Shown here: positions 12,990 to 63,497 of the stretch, in pieces
Position numbering within the stretch: the first letter of the stretch is position 1
Layout: each line of letters begins with the position of its first letter
IMG/VR virus record: IMGVR_UViG_3300045988_168611
Span: 54,219 to 118,218 of that record
Source of the DNA: a virus
Length of the DNA: 64,000 bases
Direction: 5' to 3' (one strand)
Notes under the pieces: model-generated
Database searches by the model: none
What the model was told of the DNA's origin: nothing
What the model saw: the letters and a program-made list of their open reading frames with translations, nothing else
Position numbers and translations under genes: made by a program

Positions 12990-13010
12990 TCTGATAGCGC
13001 GATGCACCCA

Positions 13011-32775: not shown

Positions 32776-33029
32776 AAAGCGCCAGGTGGCTGCCAGCATC
32801 AACGCAGCATTGCCAGCGTCGAATGAAAAACCCCCGGACACAGGAGCCTGTGTCCGGGGGTTTGCGTGTTGCTGCTGTGGTCAACATGTATGTGGTTTCT
32901 GCTTCGGTTGAGGGACTGAATACGGTATAATGCTGTGGGCCTACGCACACTGACTACCTGCTCAGTTTTAGTACGTAGAAGCCAATCGATCAAGATCAAT
33001 GACAAGACCGAAAGAGAGGTGTGATCTCT

Positions 33030-34757
33030 ATGAAGATCCCTCGTCAATCCAACAAGCAGCTCATTCGACCTGGCTTGCGTCGGCTGCCTGTGATGGCAGC
33101 CCTGACTGTAGCGATGGGCGCATCTGTTGCAGTGATGCCGACTACCGCTGCAACCGCCGCGCCTGCCAGCGCAGAAAGTACTGCGAGCACTGCCGGGCTA
33201 CCGGCTGCTGTCGCAAGTGGCTACAAGATGACGTTCCACGATGAGTTCGACGGCGACAAGCTCGATACCTCTAAATGGGGTTATCAGTACGGCTGTTTCG
33301 ATCCTGCGCAGCGATCGCAAGCGCAGTACACCGACTCTCCCGATAACGTCTCTGTGCGAGATGGTTATCTGAATCTGACGGCCAGGTACTCGCCCATGAA
33401 GACCAAGTGGGACGGCTCGCAGATCGCGCGCACCTGCAAGGACGGCAGCACGACCTATGATGCCCCGTTCACGTCGGGCATGGTCACCACAAAAACAAAA
33501 GACGGCAAGGTGTTGTATGCCGCGCCAGGAACCGGCTTCTATGCCGAGGCGCGCGTCAAGCTTCCGACCGCACGTTCGTCCTGGTCTGCTTTCTGGGGTA
33601 CCGGTACCAAGGGTGGCTGGCCCGGTAACGGTGAGATCGACGTGTTCGAGTCCAAGGGCTACGACCCGAGCTTCTTGATGAGCAACATCCACACTCCCAG
33701 GGTCGGCAACCCCAAGAAGACCCAGCAACACCAGGGCATGATGAAGGGCGACACTGCGACTTCTCAGAGCGAGTTCCATACCTACGGTGTCTTGAAGACC
33801 GCTGATGCCATTGAGTTCTACTTCGATGGGAACATGACTCACCGCGTGAAGATGCAGGATATGAAGGGCGCGAGCAACCCCTTCGCGGATCCAGAGAACG
33901 GTCTGGTGTTGAAGCTCAACCAGATGGTGGGCGGCAGCTACTTGGCCAAGCACGACAACTGGTCGGATAAGACCTTTGTCGATGCAAGCAAGTACGCGGA
34001 TGACTACAAGAGCGCTGATGGCGCGGGTTCGACCATGTATGTCGACTACGTGCGTGTGTATGAGCCGAAAACCCAGGCAGATCAGCCTGCCCAGCCTGCT
34101 CCTGCCCCTGAGCAACCGACTCCGACGCCTGCTCCCGAGCAGCCCGCGCAGCCTTCTGAGCCTACGCCCACCCCTGCTCCAGAACAGCCTGCACCTGAGC
34201 AGCCAACTCAGCCTGAGACCCCGGCCCAGCCTGAACAACCTGCGGTTCCAGAAACGCCTGCTGCACCTGAGACTCCGGCTCAACCCGAGCAACCTTCTCA
34301 GCCAGAGACTCCTGCCCAGCCTGAGCAGCCCGCTCCTGCTCCGACTCCAGAGCAGCCAGCACCTACGCCTGCCCCTGAGCCCTCTCAGCCTGCGCCTGTG
34401 ACTCCGGCACCTGCGAAGCCCACCCCTGAGCAGCCTGTTCCGGCCAAGCCAACGCCTGCACCGGCGAAGCCAACTCCGGCCAAGCCTCAACCAGCACAGC
34501 CTGTTCCGTCTCAGCCGTCTCAGCCGTCCGATAACCAGACTGACCAGAACAGCCAGCAGTCTGGACAGGCAGAGCAGAACAGCCAGCGGTCTGAACAGGA
34601 GGGGCAGAGCAAGCAGACCAAGCCAGAGCAGCCCAAGAAGTCACAGAAGCCTAGTGCTGATCGTTTGGCGAACACGGGTATGACCTCGTGGTATCGCCCG
34701 ATCGTTGTCATGTGGCGAAGCTTCTGTGGCTGGATCACCAGCTGGTGGTTCTGGTGA
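33030..34757 (+). CDS. Secreted GH16 glycoside hydrolase with Pro-rich stalk and LANTG sorting-like signal
   Basis: Signal peptide with AAPASA. The GH16 catalytic motif GEIDVFE (ExDxxE). A ~190-aa PEQPA/PTPAP repeat stalk. C-terminal LANTG followed by a W-rich hydrophobic tail. Start at ATG 33030 follows AAAGAGAGG. Confidence 0.85.
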   Translation: MKIPRQSNKQLIRPGLRRLPVMAALTVAMGASVAVMPTTAATAAPASAESTASTAGLPAAVASGYKMTFHDEFDGDKLDTSKWGYQYGCFDPAQRSQAQYTDSPDNVSVRDGYLNLTARYSPMKTKWDGSQIARTCKDGSTTYDAPFTSGMVTTKTKDGKVLYAAPGTGFYAEARVKLPTARSSWSAFWGTGTKGGWPGNGEIDVFESKGYDPSFLMSNIHTPRVGNPKKTQQHQGMMKGDTATSQSEFHTYGVLKTADAIEFYFDGNMTHRVKMQDMKGASNPFADPENGLVLKLNQMVGGSYLAKHDNWSDKTFVDASKYADDYKSADGAGSTMYVDYVRVYEPKTQADQPAQPAPAPEQPTPTPAPEQPAQPSEPTPTPAPEQPAPEQPTQPETPAQPEQPAVPETPAAPETPAQPEQPSQPETPAQPEQPAPAPTPEQPAPTPAPEPSQPAPVTPAPAKPTPEQPVPAKPTPAPAKPTPAKPQPAQPVPSQPSQPSDNQTDQNSQQSGQAEQNSQRSEQEGQSKQTKPEQPKKSQKPSADRLANTGMTSWYRPIVVMWRSFCGWITSWWFW

Positions 34758-47132: not shown

Positions 47133-49775
47133 ATGACTTCTCGTACGACTAAGCACAAGGGTCGCAAGGCTGTTGCTACTGCCGCGTTGATGGCGTTTGC
47201 TGGCGCGGCCCTCGTGGGTGCAAATCCCGCGTTTGCCGATAACGGCGGCTCTGGCGGTACCACCGGTGGCAACCTGGGTGCTGCCGGAAATTTGGGCATC
47301 CGCTACGCGTTTTTCGATGATGCTGTGGCGAACCCGCAGGGTGGCCAGGCTCTGGTTTCCCAGGGATGGGGCCAGGACAGTATCAACTGGTTCATGGATA
47401 AGGCCGGTATCACTGGTACCTACATGGCCAACCAGTTCCAGACTTCGTGTGGCGAGGCTCTGAACGAGGCTATCTCTCGTGGCCAGGCTGCTGGTGGATC
47501 CAACGTCACGGCTCGTGTGGTCGGCATCATGTATGCCACCAACAACGGCAACAACGGTGGCGCTGCTGCGCGCTCTGCGCAGTACTTCTACGACAAGGCC
47601 GAGGAATGGCGCACGGACGGCTACCCCGGCATGTACAACCGTTCGGCTGAGATCGCAGGTTTCATCTACAACCTTGCGCAGACCGGTGTCGGCAAGGCGT
47701 CTGGTTTGCCGAATGATGGCAACGCCTACGGTGAGCCGTATGTGTCCACTGCCTGTGTGGCCGTCAACAGTGAAGAGCCTGTGGGCATCTCCGCTCCGCC
47801 TCCGCCGCCTACCTACGACTTGACGGTGACGACCGATCATGCGTCGACCGTGACCGAGGCTGGCAGCACTGTGCCGGTCTACGACACGATCCATGCATCG
47901 CGTGGTGGCAAGGGCGTGGATGAGAACGTCGACGCTGAGGTTGTTCTGACCTACGAAGGCCCTGAGGGCAACAAGTCTGTGACCAAGACTGTGTCGATCG
48001 CTAACAACGGTGATACGAAGTCGCCTGAGTTCACTCCGGCTGACTTTGGCTGGACCTCGTGGCCTGCCACCGGCGAGGGCAAGAGCTTCTGGTTCGACGT
48101 GAAGGTCGCCAAGCAGGGCAACATGAACGAAGCGGTGGACACCGCCGATCGTGAGCCGTCTGAGTCTTGGACGGTTAAGCCCAAGAACCCTGTGAAGGTT
48201 CTGACCAACGGTGAAACCGGTTCTGGTCTGACCGAGAAGGACGTGTTGGCCAACAACATGTTCTACAACGCGAACATCACGGCCCACTCCAACGGTTACG
48301 CCTCGCAGCTGACCATCACTGATACGGTGAACACCGCCGATGTCACGATCGGTGGTAAGGATGCAGACGACGCTGGTCGCGTGCAGGTGCTCGGCCCCGA
48401 TGGTCAGCGCATTAAGGCTGATGTCACCATTGATCGTTCGATCGAGGGCAAGGTTGTCATCTCCGGTACTGTGAAGGACATGGAGAAGCAGGGCAACTAC
48501 ACCCTGATGGTTCCGACCTACACGAAGGCGACTGGTGCTGACTACCGTATCCCGGATGACTCCAAGGTGTGCTACACCGAGGCCCAGGATCACTGCCTGG
48601 CTGGTAACTCTGCTGAGACCGGCAAGGTGACCCCGGATCCTGACAAGGTGTGGACTGCTGATGAGACCGAGGCGCGTACGACTGCTGACCCCGAGCGCAC
48701 GAACCAGAAGGGTGTGGACCAGAAGTCCTTCCTGCCCGGTGACAAGGTCTCGGCTGTGGTCAACGATCACATCGCCGCGTACCTCCAGTACGGCCTCGAA
48801 GAGTACAGCATCACTGATGACTGGTCGGATGGCCTGACCTACGTCACGATGGACGGTGCTCCGAAGGTCTACTTCCAGGGCAACGATGTCACGGATCTGT
48901 TCGAGATCACCAACGACATCGAGAAGGGTGTGACCACCGCGAAGGCGAAGCCTGAGTTCCTGGCCAAGACTGCTCGTATGACTGAGCCCGGTGAGGTCAA
49001 GCTGGTTATTTCTGGTCAGTTCCGTCGTGACTACGACACGGACGGGGAGACGAAGCAGCTTATCAACAAGGGTTCTGTCACGTGGAACAACGAGTCTAAG
49101 GTCACCAATGAGCCGCCTATCTTCACGGTGACTCCCAAGCCCGCGATCGACGTGGAGAAGTTCACGCTGTCTGAGGGTCTTGAGGCTGGTGACCGCGACG
49201 AGGCCGATAACGCTCTGACTCTCGCGTCTGCGAAGGACGAGACTCAGATCGGCTTCCTGGTGAAGAACACCGGCGAGGCTGACCTCGTGAACGTCTCGCT
49301 CACCGATGCGACGCATGAGGGCACCACCGGTAACGTCACCGGTATCGTTTGTGAGATTCCGGCTGAGCAGGCTGCTGCTGATCCGGCGAATGCCGGTGTG
49401 ACCGGTGGCGCGACTGCGCAGACTGTGAAGGTTGCTGGTGACAAGATCGGTACCCTGAAGGTCGGTCAGTCTGTGTCCTGTGTCGGTACTCTGACCGGCG
49501 TTGAAGAGGGCACGCTGCACTCTGACACTGCCACTGTGGTTGGCGAGTCCATCCACAACGGGAAGAAGGTCTCTGACTCTGACGACTGGCACGCGAAGGT
49601 GGACTCTCCTGAGCAGCCCGCTCCGAAGGGCGCTGTGACCGGTGAGGCCGCAGGTGCAAACACTGGTCTGCTGGGCGTTCTCGGCGCTCTGATGGCCGCG
49701 ATCGGTCTGGGTGGCGGCGCTACTTACCTGAACAAGGCGCGCCGCAACAAGGCTCAGGTTGCCGTGAAGCACTGA
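47133..49775 (+). CDS. Large secreted surface protein (880 aa) with C-terminal sorting-type signal
   Basis: Signal peptide ends ANPAFA. Beta-rich repeats. The C-terminus is KGAVTGEAAGANTG, then the TM segment LLGVLGALMAAIGLGGGA, then the basic tail KARRNK. Confidence 0.8.
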   Translation: MTSRTTKHKGRKAVATAALMAFAGAALVGANPAFADNGGSGGTTGGNLGAAGNLGIRYAFFDDAVANPQGGQALVSQGWGQDSINWFMDKAGITGTYMANQFQTSCGEALNEAISRGQAAGGSNVTARVVGIMYATNNGNNGGAAARSAQYFYDKAEEWRTDGYPGMYNRSAEIAGFIYNLAQTGVGKASGLPNDGNAYGEPYVSTACVAVNSEEPVGISAPPPPPTYDLTVTTDHASTVTEAGSTVPVYDTIHASRGGKGVDENVDAEVVLTYEGPEGNKSVTKTVSIANNGDTKSPEFTPADFGWTSWPATGEGKSFWFDVKVAKQGNMNEAVDTADREPSESWTVKPKNPVKVLTNGETGSGLTEKDVLANNMFYNANITAHSNGYASQLTITDTVNTADVTIGGKDADDAGRVQVLGPDGQRIKADVTIDRSIEGKVVISGTVKDMEKQGNYTLMVPTYTKATGADYRIPDDSKVCYTEAQDHCLAGNSAETGKVTPDPDKVWTADETEARTTADPERTNQKGVDQKSFLPGDKVSAVVNDHIAAYLQYGLEEYSITDDWSDGLTYVTMDGAPKVYFQGNDVTDLFEITNDIEKGVTTAKAKPEFLAKTARMTEPGEVKLVISGQFRRDYDTDGETKQLINKGSVTWNNESKVTNEPPIFTVTPKPAIDVEKFTLSEGLEAGDRDEADNALTLASAKDETQIGFLVKNTGEADLVNVSLTDATHEGTTGNVTGIVCEIPAEQAAADPANAGVTGGATAQTVKVAGDKIGTLKVGQSVSCVGTLTGVEEGTLHSDTATVVGESIHNGKKVSDSDDWHAKVDSPEQPAPKGAVTGEAAGANTGLLGVLGALMAAIGLGGGATYLNKARRNKAQVAVKH

Positions 49776-49813
49776 TGTGCTAATATGGTCACTGTTCTGA
49801 GAAGGTGATCAGT

Positions 49814-49864
49814 ACGTAACCCCCGTGGTAGCTCTTCGCTGCTGCGGGGGTTACGTGTATTTTG
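49814..49864 (+). terminator. Terminator of the surface-protein gene
   Basis: ACGTAACCCCCG (49814-49825) pairs with CGGGGGTTACGT (49845-49856), followed by GTATTTTG. Confidence 0.65.
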
Positions 49865-49941
49865 CGCATGGATGGACAGTGCCATATGTAGTAGAATGGC
49901 TCGTGTACCAGTAGAATCGCCTAAGAAAAGAGGTCTTATTG

Positions 49942-50643
49942 ATGACTGTCCCTGTGATTATGATGCCTGATGTTGACGCCGTTCCTGCTCTGATCGATCG
50001 CCGTGATGTGCCTACCTCGTTGGTCGGTTTCGTCGGTCTCAAGCGATCGGGCAAAGACACTGCTGCGCAGGGTCTTATTGCACGAGGTTGGAAGCGTATG
50101 GCGTTTGCCGATCCGCTCAAAGAGATGAGCATGAAGCTACGCGGCGTGTGGGTCGAAGTGCCAGAAGAAGCGCGTCTTGATAGCACTATTACCGTGGTGG
50201 GCGGTTTCGCCAAGTATCACGAGGTGGTCGACGCTCTGGGTATGGAGAAGGCGAAGGATCTCGTGCCTGATGTGCGCACTGTGCTCCAAACGCTGGGCAC
50301 GGACTGCGTGCGCGACACACTGGGCGAGCGAACGTGGACGGACCTGACCGGCCAGCGCGTCCAGGAAGAGCTCGCTCGTGGTGAAGCTGTGGCGCTCACT
50401 GATGTCCGGTTTGATGAAGAGTTTAACCTCGTGCATGATCTCGGAGGCATCGTCATTGGCGTGTGGCGAGGGGATCAGGATTCCCTCGATCGAGCACTGG
50501 TTGACGCATCTGTCGGGGCGCTGGGTGCTGATCACGTGTCGGAAACCAACGCGTACAGCCTGTTGCAGCGTGCCGATGTCGTGATCTGCAACTGTGGGTC
50601 TGTTGATGATCTGCATCGTGCTGTCTGGGACATTGTTGGCTAA
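49942..50643 (+). CDS. P-loop protein resembling phage deoxynucleoside monophosphate kinase
   Basis: GFVGLKRSGKDT Walker A followed by FADPLK, as in dNMP-kinase-like phage proteins. ATG 49942 follows AAAAGAGG. Confidence 0.5.
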   Translation: MTVPVIMMPDVDAVPALIDRRDVPTSLVGFVGLKRSGKDTAAQGLIARGWKRMAFADPLKEMSMKLRGVWVEVPEEARLDSTITVVGGFAKYHEVVDALGMEKAKDLVPDVRTVLQTLGTDCVRDTLGERTWTDLTGQRVQEELARGEAVALTDVRFDEEFNLVHDLGGIVIGVWRGDQDSLDRALVDASVGALGADHVSETNAYSLLQRADVVICNCGSVDDLHRAVWDIVG

Positions 50644-50667
50644 TAGTTGGTCCCAGCACTGCGCATG

Positions 50668-50791
50668 TGGCGCTTATCTGGTCATAACGTGACCTGGTAA
50701 GCGCCGTTTTGCTTGATGTATGAGGCGAATGGGTGTATCATGGCCTATAGATGACCAGATAAGAACCACTCGTCATCTGGTTATGTGGTCC
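50668..50791. promoter_or_regulatory. Two CCAGATAAG-type palindromes flanking the presumed promoter of the RHH-ParM-sortase operon (parC-like or operator)
   Basis: GGCGCTTATCTGGTCA-n5-TGACCTGGTAAGCGCC spans 50669-50705 and is followed by GTTTTG, so it may also terminate the upstream gene. ACCAGATAAG...ATCTGGTTAT spans 50753-50785. Confidence 0.45.
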
Positions 50792-50821
50792 ACTATCAAG
50801 ATCGAGAAGAGAGAGGTGTTT

Positions 50822-51280
50822 ATGCCTAAGCGTTTCACTGGGTCTGTCCCACGCCCGACGGCGCGCCGTTTCCGGGTCTCTGTGCCCGATGCTGATGAGT
50901 CTGTGCTGGCTTGGATCGGCGCGCAGTCGGATCTCAGCGCGTCTGTGCGCAGCCTGATCCGAGAGGCGATCGAGCGACACGGGTACCGTGACGCGACGTG
51001 CTATCCGGTGGTTCAGCAGCCGCGTCGAGGCCGTCCGCCTAAATCAACAGAGCAGCTTACAGAACAGGCAGAACAGCTTGAGACTGTCGACGGTCACCCG
51101 ATCGCTCAGTCGATCGGCATACTGATGCCGAAGCCGGAGCTGGATCACGAGCTTCTCATGGTTCCTGCGTCGCATGAAGATGTCACCGATGAGCCTGAGA
51201 TTCTTGATGATTCTGACGGTTCCGATGATGCTGTCAACCCCCTGAACGATATGGAAGATGTGCTTGGCGCACTGCGTTGA
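50822..51280 (+). CDS. Putative ribbon-helix-helix DNA-binding protein with acidic tail (ParR/CopG-like adaptor candidate)
   Basis: RRFRVSVPDADESVLAWIGAQSDLSASVRSLIREAIERHG fits a beta-strand/helix/helix RHH pattern. Sits immediately upstream of the ParM-like gene. Start at ATG 50822 follows GAGAGAGG. Confidence 0.5.
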   Translation: MPKRFTGSVPRPTARRFRVSVPDADESVLAWIGAQSDLSASVRSLIREAIERHGYRDATCYPVVQQPRRGRPPKSTEQLTEQAEQLETVDGHPIAQSIGILMPKPELDHELLMVPASHEDVTDEPEILDDSDGSDDAVNPLNDMEDVLGALR

Positions 51281-51309: not shown

Positions 51310-52635
51310 ATGACTTCTGCAATCCCTGCCTCTCTGAACACGATGTCGCTTCTTGGCGGTATCGATGTCGGTAACGGCTACGTTAAGGGTCTGGTGCGGG
51401 GGACGCGCACCGATAAGGCTGGTAAGCCTGTGATCGACACGATCGATCTCCCCAGCGGCGTGACGCGGGTGACTCGGCCTAACTCTCTACCAAAGGAGGA
51501 TACTGAGGCCGAAGACGTGTGCGCCAATGATCTGTATAACCACCTCGATGTGTCGTTCTCGTCCTCAATGGTCTCAAACTCGTACCGACACCTGTTTGGT
51601 AAGCGAGCTCTGACCGCGAACGGCGCGTTCGATGAGTTCAACGTTGTGGGCAGACGGTCGAAGGCCGAGCAGGAGCTATCTAAGGTGCTGATCCTTGGTG
51701 TGTTCGCTGCGAAGGCTCTGCGTGACTATGTGGCTGTTGCTAAGACGCTGCCTGTATCGGAGCTTATTGTCGACGCGTGCGTGGCTGTTGCTCTGCCGAT
51801 CGATGAGTACATGCGTCACCGCACCAGCTACAGTGCTGAGTTCATGAACGGTACGCACCTGGTCACCGTGCACAACTTCGAGACGCCTGTCGTGGTGCGC
51901 ATTACGTTCCGTGATGTGGTGGTGATGGCCGAAGGTGCATCTGCGCAGTGGGCCATCACGGAGAAGGGTGTGCCGCTCATGCAAGCGATGCTTGCTGACG
52001 TGCGTTCTCGTGGTCTCGCACTGGAAGGTGTCACGGCAGAAGATGTCCTGGCAGCTCGTAATACGATCGGTATCGACATCGGTGAGGGAACGATTAACTT
52101 CCCGGTGTTTACCAACGGCAAGTTCAACGCAGACGCCTCTGTGACGTTCGGTGAAGGCTACGGCACTGTGCTGACCCGTGCGTTGGAGTCCATGGACGCG
52201 GAAGGCTTCCACACTGGTTTCACCAGCCGGAAGCAGCTGGCGGATTTCCTCCAGCGTGAGCCCTCGCCGTTGAAGTGGCACTTCTACAACAAGGTGCGTG
52301 CCTACGTCGACCGTGAGATCGAGTTCTTCGCACGAGCTGCGTCTGACCAGTTCGGTCGTGTTCTCGGCGTTGTTGGTGCGACGACTGAGGTCGTATTCGT
52401 GTTCGGCGGTGGCTCTGGCCCTGTGAAGGACGCGCTGTATCCGCTCTTGCTGAGCAAGGTGGCAGAAATGAACACCGAGGACGCAATGCCGGTCTTGTAC
52501 TTGGATGCGTCTTATTCTCGCTCTCTGAACCGTGAGGGTCTGTACTCGATCGCTCAGGCGTCTGCTGCGCAGTCCAGCAAGGCTGCGAAGCCTGCTAAGC
52601 GTGCTGCCAAGAACAGCACGAAGAACGGAGAGTGA
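51310..52635 (+). CDS. ParM/StbA-like actin-fold ATPase
   Basis: Phosphate-1 GGIDVGNGYVKG, phosphate-2 IGIDIGEGTINF and adenosine motif VFVFGGGSG. Confidence 0.75.
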   Translation: MTSAIPASLNTMSLLGGIDVGNGYVKGLVRGTRTDKAGKPVIDTIDLPSGVTRVTRPNSLPKEDTEAEDVCANDLYNHLDVSFSSSMVSNSYRHLFGKRALTANGAFDEFNVVGRRSKAEQELSKVLILGVFAAKALRDYVAVAKTLPVSELIVDACVAVALPIDEYMRHRTSYSAEFMNGTHLVTVHNFETPVVVRITFRDVVVMAEGASAQWAITEKGVPLMQAMLADVRSRGLALEGVTAEDVLAARNTIGIDIGEGTINFPVFTNGKFNADASVTFGEGYGTVLTRALESMDAEGFHTGFTSRKQLADFLQREPSPLKWHFYNKVRAYVDREIEFFARAASDQFGRVLGVVGATTEVVFVFGGGSGPVKDALYPLLLSKVAEMNTEDAMPVLYLDASYSRSLNREGLYSIAQASAAQSSKAAKPAKRAAKNSTKNGE

Positions 52636-52639
52636 GCAG

Positions 52640-53851
52640 ATGTCTACGTCTACGAGTCCATGGGATGATGCTTTGCGCCGTTACAGCGCGCGCGAGCACA
52701 CGCATGATGACATCGTGACTGAGTCTGGTGTGGCGGCAGCTGATGTGACAGCTGCCGCCACCGGCGCTGCTCTGCCTAGTTTCGATGACATCGTGAATGG
52801 CGATGGGACTAGCCCTGACAAGACCGAGTCTTTGGTCGTTCCATCGAGTCTCGATGAGGTGCTGCACGATGCTGGGGTTGCCCACGGTAAGCAAGGCACG
52901 CAGAACCCGAAGAACAAGCGGAGCAAATGGCGCGCTGCTCTGACAGCGATCGTGTGGCTTATCGTCACGAGTCTCATCTGTGGCGGTCTTTACCTGATCT
53001 ATCGCGCACATGATGAGGCTCAGGTCGAGGAAGAGCTTCCGGTGCCTGCTCAGACATATCAGGATGAGGAAATCTCTACTGCGCCTGTTGAGGCTACTGA
53101 TGATGTGCTCACCCATGAGTGGCCGGTCGTGAACGCGGATTCGGACCAAGGCTCGAACACGTGGGAGATTAACACTGAGGATTACAGGATTAGCACGATG
53201 TCGGTTGCTCGTATGGCTCCTGGGTCTGTGTTCATCCCGGAGTCCGGCATCTACATGGAGCTTCAGGGGTCTGATTCGTTCGAGGCGTCAAATTACGGTG
53301 ATCTTCAGACGATCCATGTGCCGACTAACGTGCACCGAGGTGTTTGGTACTCAGCTGGAGCGCCTCTCACCGCATCCGATACTGGAGTTCTCACCGGCGT
53401 TCGTCCGGGGTTTGATACACCACAGTCTTCTCGTGCTGTCTCACCCGCTTCGTCCCCCTCCCTGTCTTCTTCCGATACCGTGCAGTCGGGAACACAAACA
53501 AGCTCATCACGCGCAGTGAGTATGACGGGTGGCGAGGGAACGACGTTCATCGCCTCCCATGTGGCGTGGACAAAACGGCATCGTGGGGCTCTGTACACCA
53601 TGGCGACGGATGTCTCTCAGAATGAGTTGATCTGGGTGAAAGGCTTTGATGGATCGCTGTCCACGTGGCGCGTGAGCGGCATGTGGGTGGCTGAGCATCA
53701 GGCGTTCCCGGAGGACTATTTCAGCGCTACTGGTCCGCGTCGGTTGGTGCTGACGACCTGTGGTGGCCGTGTGAACAGCTACGGTTACTACCAGCAGAAC
53801 GTGTTTCTGGTGGCAGAGCCTGTGGCTTTGGAATCAGCGATGCAGCAGTGA
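52640..53851 (+). CDS. Membrane-anchored sortase-like transpeptidase (actinobacterial class E/F type)
   Basis: TM segment ALTAIVWLIVTSLICGGLYLIY. The catalytic-domain pattern is VGVWYS..., FIASHV (His) and RLVLTTCGG (TxxTC Cys) ...NVFLVAEP. A Ser-rich insert lies between the WY and His regions. The start is 4 nt after the ParM stop. Confidence 0.65.
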   Translation: MSTSTSPWDDALRRYSAREHTHDDIVTESGVAAADVTAAATGAALPSFDDIVNGDGTSPDKTESLVVPSSLDEVLHDAGVAHGKQGTQNPKNKRSKWRAALTAIVWLIVTSLICGGLYLIYRAHDEAQVEEELPVPAQTYQDEEISTAPVEATDDVLTHEWPVVNADSDQGSNTWEINTEDYRISTMSVARMAPGSVFIPESGIYMELQGSDSFEASNYGDLQTIHVPTNVHRGVWYSAGAPLTASDTGVLTGVRPGFDTPQSSRAVSPASSPSLSSSDTVQSGTQTSSSRAVSMTGGEGTTFIASHVAWTKRHRGALYTMATDVSQNELIWVKGFDGSLSTWRVSGMWVAEHQAFPEDYFSATGPRRLVLTTCGGRVNSYGYYQQNVFLVAEPVALESAMQQ

Positions 53852-53865
53852 TCGCTGTGTAAAGC

Positions 53866-53902
53866 AATACCCCGTAGCAGCGTAATGCTGCTACGGGGTA
53901 TT
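53866..53902. terminator. Bidirectional 16-bp hairpin between the convergent sortase and ssb genes
   Basis: AATACCCCGTAGCAGC (53866-53881) pairs with GCTGCTACGGGGTATT (53887-53902). Confidence 0.7.
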
Positions 53903-53959
53903 GGTGTTGTTTGTGAATATTCAGTTGTGATTGTTGATCAGAATCCTACCATGTTCTTC

Positions 53960-56859: not shown

Positions 56860-56942
56860 TGTCACCCCACCCTTCTGACAAGGGTGACGAGGCGGGTGAC
56901 CCATAGTCAACACCAGAAAGGAAACAAATATGTGTTGACTAG

Positions 56943-57013
56943 CTCCCAAACCAGGATTCGAACCTAGATTACCGGAACCAAAATCCGGGGTGCTACCATT
57001 ACACCATTTGGGA
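56943..57013 (-). tRNA. tRNA-Gln (anticodon UUG)
   Basis: Manual cloverleaf: TCCCAAA/TTTGGGA acceptor, GTGT/GCAC D stem, CCGGA-TTTTGGT-TCCGG anticodon arm, CTAGG-TTCGAAT-CCTGG T arm. 71 nt, no encoded CCA. Confidence 0.8.
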
Positions 57014-57087
57014 TAAAGCCAAGTGGGTTACTTGGCCGAGTGAGTAAGACTCAGATTGCATGGCTTGGTATCACCACACGCAGTGTC

Positions 57088-57333
57088 TCAGTTGGTCTCG
57101 TACATGATGTCGACTCCGAAAGCGAGCGCGGCCTGGTGCTCCAGGGTGCATCCTCGCGTCGTGTCCCATCCGTCGCACATGTAGATCACGTGCGCCTTCG
57201 AGAGACGCATCAGCGCGAGGCCCATGTGCCACAGGGCAGGGTTGACGACATCGTTGTTTACACTATTCGAGATAGAGCCAATTGTGTTACTTGGCCGAGT
57301 AGGTGGGGTTATGTCACTGTCCTTTGTGAATAA
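57088..57333 (-). pseudogene. Truncated DUF4406 / nucleoside 2-deoxyribosyltransferase-like remnant
   Basis: Minus-strand frame reads ...NPALWHMGLALMRLSKAHVIYMCDGWDTTRGCTLEHQAALAFGVDIMYETN*. This resembles the C-terminal half of DUF4406 proteins. There is no start codon or N-terminal half, and 15-nt direct repeats flank it. Confidence 0.35.
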
Positions 57334-57379
57334 TCATGACATTGTTGCCGTTGTGGCTTCCTGCCTCTTTAGTAGCTTT

Positions 57380-57736
57380 TCAGGAAGCATTCGAACTTGA
57401 GAGTGACCAGTAGATGACCCTTGGTAGTGTGCGTCGGCCACGCATTGTCTGAGCAAACGTCTCATAGGACATTTTAAGACCGGTGTTCAATACCCACGGC
57501 TTTTCGTCATCGCCATCGTCAAAGACGAGCACGCGAAATGCTTCCCAACAGTCACCCCCGATAAGTGTGCCAGATGGGATTTGCTTACTATCCAAGATGG
57601 CAACCTCACCATCGGTGTCGATGCATAGGAACTTCGTAGATTCGGTCGGAAGAAGTTCATTTTCGAGCATCTGTCGAAACTCGTTGACAATATTGTCGAT
57701 CGTCTTCTGCATGTTCATCTTCTGAATGTCGTTCAT
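57380..57736 (-). CDS. Hypothetical protein (118 aa)
   Basis: Start trimmed to ATG 57736. The track extension overlaps the tRNA-like gene. Confidence 0.55.
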   Translation of the reverse strand: MNDIQKMNMQKTIDNIVNEFRQMLENELLPTESTKFLCIDTDGEVAILDSKQIPSGTLIGGDCWEAFRVLVFDDGDDEKPWVLNTGLKMSYETFAQTMRGRRTLPRVIYWSLSSSNAS

Positions 57737-57778
57737 TGCTGTTCCCGTCTTTCGTGGTAGTTTGTGGAACGTCAGTTG

Positions 57779-57868
57779 TGGGCCAGGCAGGAGTTGAACC
57801 TGCAATGTTTCTTATGTGTCCGACGTAGCGCTCCGCCGGGTGTCTTCACCAATTCGACGCACTGACCC
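57779..57868 (-). tRNA. tRNA-like gene (type II length) with non-canonical anticodon arm
   Basis: GGGTCAG/CTGGCCC acceptor, a Leu/Ser-like D arm (GTC-GAATTGGTGAA-GAC) and a GCAGG-TTCAACT-CCTGC T arm. The only anticodon-arm fold is CCGGCG/CGTCGG with the 8-nt loop GAGCGCTA, which lacks U33. Confidence 0.45.
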
Positions 57869-57984
57869 TTGTATGACTATGGCCCCATACGTGCTTGTCA
57901 TTAAACGTATGGGGCCTTTGGCTGGAGTCATCAATTAGCCGCGAGTAGTCACCCGCAACACAAGCCGCTCTCGTGCCTGTATCG

Positions 57985-58058
57985 TCGGAATGGCGGGATT
58001 CGAACCCGCGACCCCCTGCTCCCAAAGCAGGTGCGCTACCAAGCTGCGCCACATTCCG
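57985..58058 (-). tRNA. tRNA-Pro (anticodon UGG)
   Basis: CGGAATG/CATTCCG acceptor, GCGC-AGCTTGGTA-GCGC D arm, CCTGC-TTTGGGA-GCAGG anticodon arm, GCGGG-TTCGAAT-CCCGC T arm. 74 nt. Confidence 0.85.
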
Positions 58059-58417
58059 TGCTGTTGTATGTTGTGTTGCAGGTTTGCTCTCCAGGCCCCA
58101 GATCACCTCTGTTAGTAGATAGGCCCGAAGAGCAAACCAGATGCGGTAAGTCATTAGAAAGGTGATTTCTAATGGGTCCGCTACCGTCCTCAAGATTATC
58201 TCCCTGGACGGGGTTATGTGGGGGATGCTGTTCTGCTATCTATCATCGTAGTAGAACTTGACCAACAGAAACTCACACACAAACGCCCAATGGCGCAATT
58301 GTTGGTCCTCGGAGTGCTACCCCGTACGCGATCCCCCGATCGCGGTGTCCAGTGCATCCGCTTGATCAGAGCGGCAGGAACTGAGTCCTAATCATCCAGC
58401 ATTGCCCGGACACATGG

Positions 58418-58501
58418 TGGTCCCCTCGGTGGGATTCGAACCCACAAGCCAAAGGCGGCGCATTTTGAGTGCGCTGTGTTTGCCACTTTCACCACGAGGG
58501 G
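58418..58501 (-). tRNA. tRNA-Leu (anticodon CAA), type II, CCA encoded
   Basis: CCCCTCG/CGAGGGG acceptor, GCGCA-CTCAAAA-TGCGC anticodon arm, 12-nt variable arm, GTGGG-TTCGAAT-CCCAC T arm, then ACCA. Confidence 0.85.
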
Positions 58502-58627
58502 TTAGTGGTTGGTATTTGTACCAGTGTACATTACCTCCCCCGGTACATCTGTGATGTACAAGGGGTACACACAAATATACACAGGGGAGGCAACATGAAT
58601 TGGCTGACTGACTGTCTGGACTGTCAG

Positions 58628-58891
58628 TTATCGATGAGCAGGGTAAATGGGGATGTACGTGGCGATAGCCCTACGCCCCATCTCGATTTGCTCGACCAGA
58701 TCCTCAGCGAGAGACTCATCAGTCCAGTGGCCACCGTCAGGGCTGATCCAGTGACGCTGGCACTTCATGTACTGACGGTCCTCATGAGTCACCTGCTCAG
58801 TTGGGCCGACAGTGATGATCAGCGTTCCCACTGGGAGAGAACTCAGATCGGTTTCACCGTTTCTATCAAGAAACGCAACAGTAGTAGACAT
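58628..58891 (-). CDS. Hypothetical protein (87 aa)
   Basis: Clean ORF downstream of lsr2. Confidence 0.55.
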   Translation of the reverse strand: MSTTVAFLDRNGETDLSSLPVGTLIITVGPTEQVTHEDRQYMKCQRHWISPDGGHWTDESLAEDLVEQIEMGRRAIATYIPIYPAHR

Positions 58892-58903
58892 GTGCCGTTC
58901 CTG

Positions 58904-59287
58904 TCAGTTCTCGGAGTTCTCAGTGCTCTCGGCAGTGGGCGCAGCGTGTGCAGCCTCGTAGGCAGCGATGGTGTCCTGACCCAGCTGGCCTCGCTTGGAG
59001 ACGGTCACACCGTTCTCCAGCGCCCAGGCGCGGATCTCGGCGTTTCGCTGACGCTTGATGCGAGCAGCTTCGCTGGAGCTGCGTGCCTTGCGCTTGTTGG
59101 CCGGTGCACGGCGAGCACGGCGAGCGTGTTCAATATAAGGCGCGAGTGCTGCATTAAACGCAGCCGCGTTGGCCTCAGAGAGATCGATGATGTAGTTCTT
59201 GCCGCCCACACCGAACTCGATGGTGGCGGTAGCGGGCGAACCGTCGATGTCATCGACGAGCTCGACGCTCTTGTATTCCTTGCGCAT
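58904..59287 (-). CDS. lsr2: Lsr2-like nucleoid-associated protein
   Basis: The N-terminal dimerisation pattern VELVDDIDGSPATATIEFGVGGKNYIIDLSEANA, a basic linker, and the C-terminal IRAWALENGVTVSKRGQL DNA-binding motif. Start at ATG 59287 follows ACAGGAGAA. Confidence 0.8.
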   Translation of the reverse strand: MRKEYKSVELVDDIDGSPATATIEFGVGGKNYIIDLSEANAAAFNAALAPYIEHARRARRAPANKRKARSSSEAARIKRQRNAEIRAWALENGVTVSKRGQLGQDTIAAYEAAHAAPTAESTENSEN

Positions 59288-59403
59288 TGTTTTCTCCTGT
59301 TTCTCTTTCTGTTGTTCTTGAAAAGAGAGAGGCTCCAGAGAGTATTGCATCTCCAGAGCCTCTCTCCTTGTTCCTATGTCACAGCTACTGACTCACGTCA
59401 GTG

Positions 59404-61185
59404 TCAGTTGTTGTTCTGACGACGACGCAGCAGAAGCGCAATGCCGCCAGCCGTGACGAGTGCAGTAGCACCCGCGATCATCAGGCCCATGTCGCTGGCA
59501 CCGGTCTGAGCTAGACCCGTGACAGCACCCTTGTGCTCAGTCGTGCTGTTACCCGGCTTGTCCGGGGTAGACGGAGCAGGTGGGGTCTGCTTAGAGGGCT
59601 GAGAAGGGGTTTCCTTGGGAGCCGGGGTCTCCTTGGGCTTCTCAGCGGGCTTTTCGGGAGTCGGAGTCACGCTGGGCTCCGAAGGCTTGGGATCCGGCGT
59701 AGGAGCAGGGTCCGTAGGCTCCGAGGGCTTCGAAGGCTCCGGCTTGGGCTTCTCAGGCGTAGACGGCTGAGACGGCTCAGGCTCAGGAGTGGGCGCAGGC
59801 GGCGTCACGGGCGGAGTACTGGGCTCCGGCGTGGGCTTCGGATCAGGGTTAGGAGTCGGCTGCTCCGGGGTCGGCTTGGGATCCGGCTTCGGGGTGTCCG
59901 GGGTCGGATCTGGCGTAGGAGCAGGCTTCTCGGGTTCCGGGGTGACAGGAGGCGTAGACGGCTCCGGCGTGGGAGTTGGCGCAGGCGGAGTCGACGGCTC
60001 GGGAGTCGGGTCCGGGGTCGGAGCGGGCTTGGGATCCTCAGGCGTCACCGGGGGAGTCACAGGAGGCTCAGACGGCTTGGGGTCCGGCGTAGGCTCAGGA
60101 GTGGGCGCAGGTGTCGGCGTGACCGGCTTCGCGTCCTCGCCAGTCTCGGCACCGGAAGAGCCCTTGGCTCGCCAAGTAGCAGTGGTGCTGACTTCCTTGT
60201 TGTTGACCGTCGCCTTGTTCGTCATCTCCTTCTCGGGAGTGACGACTACAACGCGGATACGAGCCATGTGGTCACCCTTCAGTTCGTTAGGGATCGTGAA
60301 GGTAGCAGACTTCCCGTCTGCACTCTTCGTGACCTTAGGCTTGGTAACACCGATGTTGTTCCAGTCGATGGGGTTGGCCCAGTCACCGTCGACAGTCGTC
60401 ATGGTGACACCGCCCTGGTAGGTGGCATCGTCACGAGTCTCCGTGATCGTGATGGTCTGGCCCGGCTGGCCCTGGGCCTGAACCCAGCATCCGAACTTGT
60501 AGAGGCCCTCTGGGGTCTTGCCATCAGACCAGCAGAACTTGCCGTCGCCCTTGGTGACGGGCTCACCGACGACGCCTCGGCCCAGACCGACGGTGTACTT
60601 CGTACCGTCGACGACGACGTTGGTCGTGGTCTTGCCGACGCTGGACTTGGTCAGCACGGCTTCGAGCTTGACGAAGCCGTTCTTGAGCGACCCATTGCCG
60701 CCAAGAGTCTGGGCGATGTCCTCGGTGACGACACACTTGAATGCGCCGTTCTCGGCGGTGCACTTACCGATCTTCTTCTCAGAGCCATCCAAGGCGGTGG
60801 CCTTGAGATCGACACTGTTGAATCCGTTCGGAACCTGGAGGCCGTCCCCGAGGCCCACGGAGAAGGTGGCACCCTTTTCGACCTTGTCACCCGTGTAATC
60901 GACGCGGATGTCGAGCGTGGCGTTCACGGAGTACTTGTCTCCGTAACGGCCCTTAACATCGGTCTTGACGATCTTGATGCCGCCCGTGGCGGTGGACGCA
61001 CCGGGCTCGGTGCCGATGATGCCGTTGTTGCCATCAGCAGACGCAGAAGTTGCGCCGTTGGTGTCAGCAGCGTTGTCGGTCCCGGTGGTAGCGGCCTGAG
61101 CAGCCACGGGGGCTGCGAAGAGAAGCGTGGTAGCGACCACAAGAGTGAGGCCGGACTTTCGCTTCTTGAAAATGTTGAGATTCAT
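59404..61185 (-). CDS. Cell-wall-anchored surface protein with LAQTG sorting signal and P/T-rich stalk
   Basis: Signal peptide ends PVAAQA. A beta-rich adhesin-like N-terminal half. A ~200-aa PTPEP/PKP repeat stalk. The C-terminus is KGAVTGLAQTG, a TM segment, then RRRQNNN. Confidence 0.8.
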   Translation of the reverse strand: MNLNIFKKRKSGLTLVVATTLLFAAPVAAQAATTGTDNAADTNGATSASADGNNGIIGTEPGASTATGGIKIVKTDVKGRYGDKYSVNATLDIRVDYTGDKVEKGATFSVGLGDGLQVPNGFNSVDLKATALDGSEKKIGKCTAENGAFKCVVTEDIAQTLGGNGSLKNGFVKLEAVLTKSSVGKTTTNVVVDGTKYTVGLGRGVVGEPVTKGDGKFCWSDGKTPEGLYKFGCWVQAQGQPGQTITITETRDDATYQGGVTMTTVDGDWANPIDWNNIGVTKPKVTKSADGKSATFTIPNELKGDHMARIRVVVVTPEKEMTNKATVNNKEVSTTATWRAKGSSGAETGEDAKPVTPTPAPTPEPTPDPKPSEPPVTPPVTPEDPKPAPTPDPTPEPSTPPAPTPTPEPSTPPVTPEPEKPAPTPDPTPDTPKPDPKPTPEQPTPNPDPKPTPEPSTPPVTPPAPTPEPEPSQPSTPEKPKPEPSKPSEPTDPAPTPDPKPSEPSVTPTPEKPAEKPKETPAPKETPSQPSKQTPPAPSTPDKPGNSTTEHKGAVTGLAQTGASDMGLMIAGATALVTAGGIALLLRRRQNNN

Positions 61186-61333
61186 TGAGTAACTCTTCCT
61201 TTCGTGAAGGGTGTGCTGGGGATAATGGGTTCATCCCCAGAGAAGACTCTTGCGCATCTGTGATGAGCAGGAGTACGTTCTGGTCTCAGTTTACTTGATA
61301 ACTGAGGATATTGACAGCCAAACGTGTGAGAAA

Positions 61334-61705
61334 TTAAGTGAAGAACACGCAGTCACCGCCAAACATTTGGATACGATCGTCATCGATAAGTGCGATTGGT
61401 GCATCTTCGGGCACAAGGCATTTGATGACGATCTTGTTACGAGACGTAGAGGATGCCCTCAGAACTGGAATGATCGTCCCACGCAGCTGCTTGGGTGTGA
61501 TGCCGTATGTGTTGACGAGAATCGTGTAGACAGCGAGCGTCTTGCTTTCGATCTCGTCGCTGAACGCGCGTAAGAGATCCGTGTGGGAGTACTCGTCAAA
61601 GGAGAAATTACACGGAAGCATGATGGGGAATTCAACGCGCAGCGTTGTGTAGCGACGCGGTTTGAAACGTTTGATAAGTGTGGTGAGAGCGGAGATGGGA
61701 GACAT
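61334..61705 (-). CDS. Hypothetical protein (123 aa)
   Basis: Start trimmed to ATG 61705, which follows ACAGGAC. Confidence 0.55.
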   Translation of the reverse strand: MSPISALTTLIKRFKPRRYTTLRVEFPIMLPCNFSFDEYSHTDLLRAFSDEIESKTLAVYTILVNTYGITPKQLRGTIIPVLRASSTSRNKIVIKCLVPEDAPIALIDDDRIQMFGGDCVFFT

Positions 61706-61736
61706 GTTGGTCCTGTCTGTTGTATCTGCTGTTTTG

Positions 61737-62180
61737 TTAGATGTGGGTGGATAGCCCAAGAAGGATATGCATCAATAGAGGAATGCTGATCATTGCACCG
61801 ATGATGCCGATGGCAATGAAGAGACCCTTTTGGGCATTAGTAGCTTTTAATTTTCCGTGACGACGGAGAAAGTTGATGTATTCATTTTTGCGCTGTGTGT
61901 ATGCGCTGTATGCTGGCGTGTACGGGTCAAAGTTACTTTTACTCGACCAGTTGGCTGCTCCCATGTATCGCCAATAGCGCATACGTTCTTCGTTTTCATA
62001 GGTGGGATTGGCACGGTATTCCATTTCGTATGCATTTGCCAGATCATATGCAATACCTTCAAGTTTGTCGATGGCGGGAATCGTCCGGTTGATGTAGATT
62101 TCGCGCTGCTGACGTTCGTATGCTTCGAGCAAATTGTCGATATTGTTAGATTTTGACGGGTGTTCGCACATGGTGCACAT
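61737..62180 (-). CDS. Hypothetical C-terminally membrane-anchored protein (147 aa)
   Basis: TM segment GLFIAIGIIGAMISIPLLMHILLGL. TAGGAGAA precedes the ATG. Confidence 0.55.
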   Translation of the reverse strand: MCTMCEHPSKSNNIDNLLEAYERQQREIYINRTIPAIDKLEGIAYDLANAYEMEYRANPTYENEERMRYWRYMGAANWSSKSNFDPYTPAYSAYTQRKNEYINFLRRHGKLKATNAQKGLFIAIGIIGAMISIPLLMHILLGLSTHI

Positions 62181-62287
62181 TGGTTTCTCCTATTGTTGAA
62201 GAGCATGAGGTATAGCAAAGTCCGCCCCTACCAATAGCAAGCGTATGTGCTACGGGTAGAGGCGGACTGTTACTAAGAGATTAGCGA

Positions 62288-62581
62288 TCAGATCTCATCA
62301 AGCGAGTATTCTCGACCAGCGCGGATGCGCATGATTTCGAAATCAGCCACGTCGCTCACAGTGCGGCAACCAGCCTTGTGTGCAAGGTTGTAGCGATCGA
62401 TGTAGTTATTAACGAGATCAACTGTGGCGGTGAAACCGATGGGCTCGGAGTCGGGGTTATTCAGTTCGAGGATCTCAGTCAGGATCTTCGCTTCGAAGAG
62501 ATTCTTTAGGATCGTCTCGTCGTTGATCCAGTATCGGTCGCCAAGGATGTCCTTGAATTCAATGTTGTTGTGGTCGGCCAT
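62288..62581 (-). CDS. Hypothetical protein (97 aa)
   Basis: GAAGGAGAA precedes the ATG. A hairpin (about 62219-62267) lies downstream. Confidence 0.6.
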   Translation of the reverse strand: MADHNNIEFKDILGDRYWINDETILKNLFEAKILTEILELNNPDSEPIGFTATVDLVNNYIDRYNLAHKAGCRTVSDVADFEIMRIRAGREYSLDEI

Positions 62582-62614
62582 GTGTGTTTCTCCTTCTTTT
62601 TTGGGTGGGTTCTG

Positions 62615-62776
62615 TCAGTGTTCTGGGATTAGCAATATAACTATTGACATACAAGCCGTTACTAGGATGGCAATGTCAATCGTGATAGCGATGGGTTTGT
62701 GTTTCTCAATATCTCCGGGGAGCATTAAAAGGGCCAGGATGATAGTGATGACGTTTATGATGATCCATGAGGACAT
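62615..62776 (-). CDS. Small two-TM membrane protein (53 aa), below the ORF-track cut-off
   Basis: Manual translation gives MSSWIIINVITIILALLMLPGDIEKHKPIAITIDIAILVTACMSIVILLIPEH. AAGGAAA precedes the ATG. Confidence 0.4.
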   Translation of the reverse strand: MSSWIIINVITIILALLMLPGDIEKHKPIAITIDIAILVTACMSIVILLIPEH

Positions 62777-62827
62777 GCCAGTGTTTCCTTTTTGGTTTTC
62801 GATTGTAGTGGTGTATGGAATTGTGCG

Positions 62828-63046
62828 TCATTTAATCGGCTCGATCAATGCCGCGATGTCAATCATGATGATGACGAGTAAGAAGCTCATGAGAACAGAG
62901 CTACTGATGAGAAATGCGATATGGCGTTTGCGGTGTGTGGGTTGCGCTGTTGCCATGTTGCGTGGCAGTGCCATAAGAGTGACAAGCAGCAACACAGTGA
63001 GTACAAATCCTGCGACATGGGTAGGGATAATAGATGTAATGTTCAT
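62828..63046 (-). CDS. Small two-TM membrane protein (72 aa)
   Basis: Start trimmed to ATG 63046, overlapping the stop of the upstream gene (TGACATG). Confidence 0.45.
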   Translation of the reverse strand: MNITSIIPTHVAGFVLTVLLLVTLMALPRNMATAQPTHRKRHIAFLISSSVLMSFLLVIIMIDIAALIEPIK

Positions 63047-63047
63047 G

Positions 63048-63272
63048 TCAGACCCAGATGAGCCACGAGTCGGGCTTTGCATTGATGCGCTCCAGCATCC
63101 ATGCGTCATTATGTGCACATTCGATGTTGTTGCTATCGATCCAGAGATTGAAGCCGTCGCAATACGTCTTCATGTATCGATTGCCCTCGCTGTCCTCGAT
63201 GACAGTACCGATGGCAAGACGGTTAAACGGCGTGGTGAGTGTACTGAAGATAACGGGCGGGTGAATAGACAT
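63048..63272 (-). CDS. Hypothetical protein (74 aa)
   Basis: Start trimmed to ATG 63272, which follows AGAAAGG. The track extension overlaps tRNA-Lys. Confidence 0.5.
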   Translation of the reverse strand: MSIHPPVIFSTLTTPFNRLAIGTVIEDSEGNRYMKTYCDGFNLWIDSNNIECAHNDAWMLERINAKPDSWLIWV

Positions 63273-63317
63273 GTGTGCGGCCTTTCTTCTTGTAAGTGGT
63301 TGTTGATGAGATGTGTT

Positions 63318-63391
<74 letters not shown>

Positions 63392-63412
63392 TGTGTTCTT
63401 TTTGTTTCTGCG

Positions 63413-63497
63413 TCCCCTCGGTGGGATTCGAACCCACATACCCGTGATGAGTACTGGAACCTAAATCCAGCGCGTCTGCCTGTTTCGCCACGAGGGG
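63413..63497 (-). tRNA. tRNA-Leu (anticodon UAG), type II
   Basis: Acceptor and T arm are identical to those of the Leu-CAA gene. CTGGA-TTTAGGT-TCCAG anticodon arm and a 16-nt variable arm. 85 nt. Confidence 0.85.

Follow-up and report, generated by a model that had tools for sequence, protein, structure and literature searches.

A tailed phage encoding a class-F-like sortase and candidate wall-anchored adhesins that share a GAVTG motif

RESULTS

A sortase and candidate substrates on one phage element

We analyzed a 64,000-nucleotide stretch of viral DNA (positions 54,219 to 118,218 of the IMG/VR record IMGVR_UViG_3300045988_168611; hereafter the window), which carries, at 52640..53851 on the plus strand, a gene for a membrane-anchored, class-F-like sortase of 403 amino acids (aa). 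We favor, with moderate confidence, the reading that this class-F-type enzyme of a phage anchors a co-encoded adhesin resembling streptococcal antigen I/II (AgI/II), and probably also a secreted 593-aa protein, to the host cell wall by way of a shared motif, GAVTG. The evidence comprises the gene and its topology, a sortase fold, the conservation of the catalytic residues, the phage identity of the carrier, and the inheritance of the sortase together with GAVTG-bearing proteins. An earlier sequence-only reading of the window had proposed that one element brings both an enzyme and its own substrates, marked by LAxTG-type motifs. The co-encoding holds and is still the best reading, but LAxTG is unlikely to be the cognate signal.

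The 403-aa protein has a predicted sortase fold

The sortase gene starts at an ATG with GGAGAG just 5′ of it. An alternative start, a GTG at 52532, would give a longer protein, overlaps the upstream gene, and lacks a comparable ribosome-binding site. Residues 1-95 contain no hydrophobic segment and end in KNKRSKWR, and they are followed by a transmembrane (TM) helix at about residues 99-121 (52934-53002, plus strand), where the AlphaFold2 (AF2) model has a helix at 93-126. Because positive charges precede this helix, the N terminus is predicted to be cytoplasmic and the sortase domain (about residues 130-398, the C-terminal part of ~270 aa) to lie on the outer side of the membrane, the usual arrangement of sortases. 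The topology proposed earlier, i.e., a cytoplasmic N terminus, a single TM helix, and a catalytic domain, was borne out by the charge pattern, the AF2 helix, and the Pfam and Foldseek matches.

The Pfam Sortase family (PF04203, peptidase C60) matched residues 291-395 with 31.0 bits, above its gathering score of 26.6. The AF2 model, built from a 31-sequence alignment, was mostly confident across the domain, with 157 residues at a pLDDT of ≥90, and its best 50 Foldseek matches in the PDB were sortases without exception (classes A, C, D, and E; E value of about 5e-5, probability of 1.00). The Pfam profile and the structure search, either of which might have turned the assignment down, agree in this respect, and the C-terminal domain is modeled as having the sortase fold, an eight-stranded β-barrel. 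The Ser-rich insert that had been described as atypical (53399..53527, plus strand, about residues 254-296) precedes the strand with the catalytic His. It was indeed modeled as disordered (pLDDT of <50), is the most variable part among the phage homologues, and is missing from most relatives.

Invariant His, Cys, and Asn residues in a divergent class-F-like active site

The catalytic His in FIASHV and the catalytic Cys in LVLTTCGG, both recognized in the sequence-only reading, correspond to His307 (codon 53558..53560, plus strand) and Cys374 (53759..53761, plus strand). In an hhalign profile-sequence alignment these residues aligned with His120 and Cys184 of Staphylococcus aureus SrtA, and Asn387 (53798..53800, plus strand) aligned with Arg197, the canonical sortase Arg, with the same spacing of 13 residues from the Cys in both proteins; the alignment had a low probability (22.6%), though the catalytic residues were in register, and the SrtA sequence used in it did not come from a database. 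His307, Thr373-Cys374, and Asn387 are invariant across the phage proteins and their distant relatives, and H307, C374, N387, R367, and R377 are kept in 133/133 close phage homologues. Two arginines were considered as stand-ins for the catalytic Arg and rejected: R367 precedes the Cys by seven residues and occupies the distant end of the strand, and R377 (Cys+3) is not conserved beyond the phage clade. Across the 133 homologues the catalytic domain was 96-100% conserved in each stretch of 20 residues, with the N terminus and the insert varying. This concentration of conservation on the catalytic domain is the pattern expected of a functional enzyme and suggests purifying selection on the sortase domain as an active enzyme.

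Searched exhaustively with HMMER, a set of 1.84 billion representative proteins yielded 499 relatives at an E value of ≤0.001, only 13 of them at ≤1e-30. The distant relatives that bear names are NCBI class F sortases of Micropruina, Promicromonospora, Mariniluteicoccus, Streptomyces, and Nocardioides; an Asn at the Arg position is found in NCBI-named class F sortases as well, and the class F signature, TCGG ... Y..N[VI].V.A.P, is present in the phage sortase. In the classification by hidden Markov models, the protein passed the Pfam Sortase model, and the NCBIfam class F model (NF033748) was the only class model reported at an E value of ≤0.1, scoring 37.6 bits where the cutoff is 166. No class E match was found, since NCBIfam gave no family besides class F at that threshold. 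From these comparisons, the 403-aa protein is best described as a divergent class-F-like sortase, neither a certified member of class F nor a class E enzyme. The resemblance to "class E/F" enzymes suggested earlier thus survives in its class F half, through the nearest named relatives, and not in its class E half. The argument that LAxTG, being the class E motif, belongs with this enzyme lapses as well, since its relatives are of class F and the motifs are not tied to it.

Two secreted proteins share a GAVTG motif

The first candidate substrate is an AgI/II-C2-like adhesin of 880 aa (47133..49775, plus strand) with a signal peptide and a Pfam AgI_II_C2 match just under the cutoff (26.5 versus 27.1 bits). 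Its tail reads PKGAVTG-EAAGANTG-LLGVLGALMAAIGLGGGATYL-NKARRNK, with LLGVLGALMAAIGLGGGATYL at the TM position, and no anchor model of NCBIfam or Pfam matched it. GANTG (49653..49667, plus strand) had been taken as its sorting signal. We propose instead GAVTG (49629..49643, plus strand), three residues upstream. The motif [KR]GA[VI]TG was found in all of the adhesin tails that we read, 17/17 from phage clade 1 and 8/8 from clade 2. In the same eight clade-2 phages, whose sortase and ParM are about 56% and about 86% identical to those of the window, GANTG is replaced by GANTA with RGAVTG unchanged, and GANTG is also missing in more distant elements. We therefore rejected it as the motif of the adhesin.

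The second candidate is a secreted protein of 593 aa (59404..61185, minus strand) with a signal peptide, an all-β N-terminal region, and a Pro/Thr-rich, wall-spanning linker. The single-sequence AF2 model of its N-terminal region had a pLDDT of 50 and was not used for a fold search. The tail, KGAVTG-LAQTG-ASDMG-TM-RRRQNNN, matches the LPXTG_anchor model TIGR01167 (19.9 bits versus a cutoff of 15.9), and GAVTG immediately precedes LAQTG in it (tandem at 59500..59529, minus strand; LAQTG at 59514). The tandem is kept in every relative of this protein that we read. Clade-2 phages have an additional gene or two (390-530 aa; loci L088-L095, ~11200-14060, minus strand) that are convergent with the sortase gene and end in LAHTG, a TM segment, and RKR; nothing equivalent occupies this place in the window phage.

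Both the 880-aa and the 593-aa protein have the architecture of a cell wall-sorted protein, i.e., an N-terminal signal peptide and a C-terminal motif, hydrophobic segment, and basic tail. Within the last 60 aa of the six-frame open reading frames (ORFs) of the window, GA[VI]TG occurs twice against 0.03 occurrences expected by chance, and both occurrences sit in the tails of secreted proteins. The three secreted proteins pointed out earlier, with LANTG at 34665, GANTG at 49653, and LAQTG at 59514, do exist and do have signal peptides; what changed is the assignment of their motifs, with GAVTG shared by two of them. The 880-aa adhesin is the most likely cognate substrate of the sortase, and the 593-aa protein is probably a second one. 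Given their Sec signal peptides and membrane anchors, these candidate surface proteins are unlikely to serve in the virion.

GAVTG accompanies the sortase in distant elements

More distant sortases, 33-42% identical to that of the window, each lie beside or near a gene for a large secreted protein with a similar tail. At loci L120/L121, the partner is a protein of 907 aa with AgI_II_C2 and Antigen_C domains, encoded immediately upstream of the sortase (tail ..MGAVTGEAVSSTNP-TM-RRRN), and at L124 it is a protein of 1403 aa with AgI_II_C2, again immediately upstream (tail ..NGAVTGVGVADIDP-TM-RRRKARK). The partner at L118, on a 258-kb contig, has 1744 aa and the tail ..KGAVTGEAVTQQNP-TM-SRKRR, that at L123 ends in ..RGAVTGEAVSETNP-TM-RRR, and that at L122 (47% GC) ends in ..KGIVSG..-TM-SRRQEGKK. 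GAVTG is therefore present in the tails of four distant elements (L120, L124, L118, and L123), GIVSG replaces it in the fifth (L122), and LAxTG is found in none. The partners are homologous to the 880-aa protein, with 44% identity over 660 aa at L124 and 50% over 410 aa at L118. The motif inherited with this sortase is therefore GAVTG, most likely its cognate signal, and we regard the sortase and the AgI/II-like adhesin as a conserved cassette.

Chromosomal class F sortases showed a comparable arrangement. All four that were sampled adjoin a gene for a secreted protein with a TM segment and an Arg tail and without LPXTG or LAXTG, the tails having short Gly/Ala/Val-rich motifs instead (AILSG, GVAAG, GVPAG, and VINAG). 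This fits a class F branch that works with dedicated neighbors and noncanonical signals. At the Promicromonospora locus L129 (3108-6193), a DUF4397 gene, encoding a protein with a TM segment and an Arg tail, has its stop codon within the overlapping class F sortase gene, and genes for a sigma factor of the ECF type and an anti-sigma factor of the RskA type come next; the arrangement has the look of a class F cassette that recurs on chromosomes. Separately, at L118 (11336-15526; Logan SRR32661517_185) the sortase gene is directly followed by genes for a pair of T2SSE ATPases, the platform protein T2SSF, and a Peptidase_A24 prepilin peptidase, with several proteins having prepilin-like N termini further on, so that a type IV pilus or Tad-like system adjoins the sortase-adhesin pair there.

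The strongest rival to anchoring by the phage sortase is that a housekeeping class E sortase of the host reads LAxTG (LAQTG, LAHTG, and perhaps LANTG), leaving the phage enzyme another job, such as a different substrate or the remodeling of host surface proteins. Class E sortases recognize LAxTG, and one of them, SrtA, occurs in Actinomyces; class F sortases have no proven substrates, and LAQTG and LAHTG are kept in the second-substrate genes. On the other hand, the adhesin partner keeps GAVTG only, the partners in four distant elements carry GAVTG and no LAxTG, GANTG decays to GANTA in clade 2 with GAVTG retained, and the sortase and the adhesin are co-inherited, often as adjacent genes. We consider host anchoring unlikely as a general account. 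It keeps its place for the 593-aa protein and the clade-2 LAHTG proteins because of their tandem GAVTG-LAQTG or their LAHTG, but the adhesins with GAVTG alone argue against it for the core cassette.

The GH16 protein is a doubtful third substrate

The third protein, which had been listed as a substrate through its LANTG, is a secreted glycoside hydrolase of family GH16 (578 aa; 33021..34757, plus strand; Pfam GH16, 47 bits) with a signal peptide and a Pro-rich linker. LANTG (34665-34679, plus strand) lies exactly at the junction between the linker and a Trp-rich tail of 25 aa (34680-34754, plus strand; MTSWYRPIVVMWRSFCGWITSWWFW; ..WYRPVVVMWRSFCGWITSWWFW). This tail lacks a basic C terminus, so it does not have the architecture of a sorting signal, and anchor models of NCBIfam and Pfam did not match it. 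It is conserved as protein in 12 relatives and in a variant form in 8 more, and a frameshift origin was rejected on this account. Whether a third substrate or not, the Trp-rich tail (loci L019-L034 compared) may be an unrecognized type of C-terminal surface or membrane anchor.

If the sequence-only reading were taken literally, a class E/F enzyme would act on LANTG, GANTG, and LAQTG alike and the GH16 glycanase would be wall-anchored. All three pentapeptides do lie near the C termini of signal-peptide proteins, LANTG is conserved in clade 1 at the junction just described, and in a third clade the entire GH16 tail is swapped for a canonical anchor (LPSTGG, a TM segment, and SRKSKRG), so that surface retention of the enzyme seems to be selected. 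However, the homologous tail in clade 2 begins with KVTTI and has no LAxTG in phages that keep the sortase, the window tail has neither a basic end nor an anchor match, GANTG is not conserved, and the enzyme is not of class E. The literal version is improbable, and a dependence of the GH16 protein on the phage sortase is doubtful.

The carrier is a tailed phage with a probable actinobacterial host

The window contains a phage-type replication module, consisting of genes for a PolIII-like polymerase, a clamp loader, a primase, a helicase, and a RecJ-like nuclease, and in addition genes for a deoxynucleoside monophosphate (dNMP) kinase and a single-stranded DNA-binding protein. Metagenomes contain about 250 close homologues of the sortase. 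The contigs that carry them reach about 125 kb, and those in IMG/VR are viral contigs of 105-126 kb. One of these, IMGVR_UViG_3300045988_166195, encodes a 95%-identical sortase and a terminase large subunit within a 1257-aa ORF (phrog_19299, 2e-67), which identifies the element as a tailed phage; the "mobile element" supposed earlier is a phage. From its gene content, then, the carrier belongs to a family of tailed phages of 105-126 kb known only from metagenomes. No capsid, portal, or tail genes were identified in the three flanks searched with PHROGs, the first two giving no match and the third giving the terminase. The terminase ORF (L096, 2909-6682) is unusually long and also matches PHROGs for an ATP-dependent protease, a DnaC-like loader, and a primase, which suggests one or more inteins or a composite gene.

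A megablast of the region and a tblastn search with the sortase found no similarity to any INPHARED phage or PLSDB plasmid, and the sortase had no match in PHROGs, PADLOC, INPHARED (tblastn), PLSDB (tblastn), or BFVD (fold search). A relative in GenBank, DAG98597.1, is automatically annotated as "MAG TPA: Sortase [Herelleviridae sp.]".

The 593-aa gene is directly followed, on its own strand, by a gene for Lsr2 with dimerization and DNA-binding domains (58904-59350, minus strand). To our knowledge, Lsr2 is specific to actinobacteria, and its presence points to an actinobacterial host. Lsr2 is also a possible regulator. One related contig was binned by CONCOCT into a metagenome-assembled genome of an "uncultured Actinomyces sp.", which makes Actinomyces a possible host. 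Judging by their accessions (ERR589xxx series, HMP-type IMG ids), the samples may be from the human mouth.

Upstream of the sortase gene, and ending 4 nucleotides before its start codon, is a gene for an actin-like protein (ALP) of the ALP/ParM type (51310..52635, plus strand; Pfam ALP_N, 35.7 bits). The same order, ALP and then sortase, recurs at L118 (8429-9769) and L123 (4024-5367), with sortases ~33-34% identical; common ancestry, and not a functional tie, may account for this adjacency. The ALP/ParM gene is also a possible hint of plasmid-like maintenance of the phage. Further upstream, in the same apparent transcription unit, are the dNMP kinase gene (Pfam DNMK) and a 186-aa ORF (orf186; both within 49939..51280, plus strand). 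Terminator-like hairpins with stems of 20 bp (49813..49857, plus strand) and 18 bp (53865..53903, plus strand) follow the adhesin gene and, directly, the sortase gene, respectively, and therefore mark off the adhesin gene as one apparent transcription unit and dNMP kinase-orf186-ALP/ParM-sortase as another. The latter gene order is kept in both phage clades and is not kept in the clade-3 loci compared.

Elsewhere in the window are five tRNA genes (Gln, Pro, Leu-CAA, Lys, and Leu-TAG; 56942-63497), all on the minus strand; a mechanically called ORF at 62424-63380 overlaps the tRNA-Lys gene and is probably not a gene. The window also encodes a Clp-type double AAA+ ATPase (2730-4598, minus strand; AAA_2, AAA, and AAA_lid_9; phrog_4871, "ATP-dependent protease," 1e-114), a YdjM-type inner membrane protein (7956-8726, plus strand; PF04307, 40.7 bits), and a CPBP/Rce1-like intramembrane protease (25454-26242, minus strand; PF02517, 80 bits). 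A role of this protease in processing membrane-embedded tail peptides would be pure speculation.

DISCUSSION

We infer the activity of the sortase, the cleavage site, the linkage to the wall, the time at which the genes are expressed, and what the phage gains as follows. The adhesin, and probably the 593-aa protein, would be exported by the Sec pathway and held in the membrane by the C-terminal TM segment and basic tail. The phage sortase would then recognize the shared [KR]-G-A-[VI]-T-G, with Cys374 attacking it and, by analogy with other sortases, cleaving after the Thr. The cleaved protein would be passed to the amine of the lipid II cross-bridge, the peptidoglycan precursor, and so join the wall. 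An infected or phage-carrying cell would in this way display phage-encoded adhesins covalently on its wall, which might aid adhesion or coaggregation in the niche of the host or mask receptors. More tentatively, we suggest that a widespread family of large actinobacterial phages carries such a self-contained display cassette, made up of a His-Cys-Asn sortase of class F type, co-evolving AgI/II-like adhesins, and a new signal, GAVTG.

Several observations weigh against anchoring by the phage sortase. Reviews state that every sortase uses a His-Cys-Arg triad, and the canonical triad is not present here, with Asn387 standing at the Arg position. The class F match, besides its low score, covers positions 55-153 of the 155 in the model, i.e., the C-terminal half only, and phmmer and 21-sequence profile searches of the PDB with the 403-aa protein returned no sortase, structure comparison alone doing so. 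According to the literature, what class F sortases do physiologically is unknown, and deleting four of them in Actinoplanes produced no phenotype. The motifs next to chromosomal class F sortases differ from GAVTG and from one another, so that they do not define a motif common to class F. LAQTG in clade 1 and LAHTG in the clade-2 genes adjoining the sortase are perfect class E motifs, open to a housekeeping sortase of the host. In addition, the apparent transcription units group the sortase with replication and segregation genes and not with the adhesin, and the sole lead to a host genus is a single CONCOCT bin.

The Asn at the position of Arg197, the class F score well under its cutoff, and the deletion without a phenotype would also suit a sortase fold that is no wall-anchoring transpeptidase, i.e., a hydrolase or processing protease releasing or maturing GAVTG proteins, or an inactive binding module, but we hold this to be quite unlikely given the strictly conserved His and Cys, a domain apparently under purifying selection, partner proteins with a full tripartite sorting signal, and a Propionibacterium acnes class F enzyme that is reported to be an active transpeptidase.

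If anchoring by the phage sortase is confirmed, the consequences would reach beyond this phage. Sortases are held to be enzymes of cells, and no virus-encoded one would have been described before this; it would also bring the first assignment of a substrate and motif for the class-F-type branch, which has no known function in Streptomyces or Actinoplanes. Phages would be able to re-surface their hosts covalently, independently of host sortases, and within multispecies biofilms, dental plaque for instance, they could alter how these hosts stick to surfaces, other bacteria, or other phages. The phage sortase and GAVTG form a concrete pair of enzyme and motif that can be tested cheaply, and a sortase with a new specificity (GAVTG, active-site Asn) may be of use in protein ligation. 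If a host sortase does the anchoring, the finding shrinks to adhesin morons of a phage and an enzyme of unknown role. Our literature search found no paper on a phage-encoded sortase and none on GAVTG as a sorting signal.

Among known systems, the closest to the phage enzyme are the class F sortases (NF033748; IPR042001), with which it shares the His, LV(L/V)(T/V)TCGG followed by Y..N(V/I)(V/F)V.A.P, the Asn at the Arg position, the N-terminal membrane anchor, and a neighboring secreted protein with a TM segment and an Arg tail but no LPXTG. It differs from them in its cytoplasmic extension of 95 aa, a larger N-terminal half of the domain, the Ser-rich insert of ~45 aa, its phage origin, and the GAVTG of its partner, as opposed to the LPXTG that the one characterized class F enzyme is reported to use. 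The class E sortases (Streptomyces SrtE1/E2, Corynebacterium SrtF/Cg-SrtE, and Actinomyces oris SrtA) are likewise actinobacterial, and class E structures are among the fold matches. Their LAxTG resembles GAVTG in the Ala at position 2 and the T-G at positions 4 and 5, position 1 being Gly rather than Leu, and the 593-aa protein carries LAQTG in addition. Unlike the phage enzyme, with its Asn for Arg, they are chromosomal housekeeping enzymes.

Anchored adhesins on mobile elements are known from SasX, an LPXTG protein on a prophage of S. aureus that relies on the host sortase, and plasmids carry sortase-adhesin cassettes, as in the bee locus of Enterococcus faecalis and srtD-cnaC on pCW3 of Clostridium perfringens. 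The plasmid cassettes resemble the phage system in having a dedicated sortase next to its substrate, but their enzymes are of class A, C, or D type with LPXTG-type signals. What sets the phage apart from these prophage and plasmid examples is that the virus itself carries a class-F-type sortase and pairs it with a non-LPXTG motif. The 880-aa protein is similar to streptococcal antigen I/II (SspA/B and SpaP) in its C2-like domain, signal peptide, large extracellular region, and C-terminal wall anchor; it differs in falling under the Pfam cutoff, in having no detected A- or P-repeats or V-region, in carrying GAVTG rather than LPxTG, and in being phage-encoded. Thus, systems of a sortase with its substrates and adhesins on mobile elements were already known, and what would be new here is a virus-borne class-F-like sortase with an Asn variant of the active site that is paired with an adhesin by a new motif.

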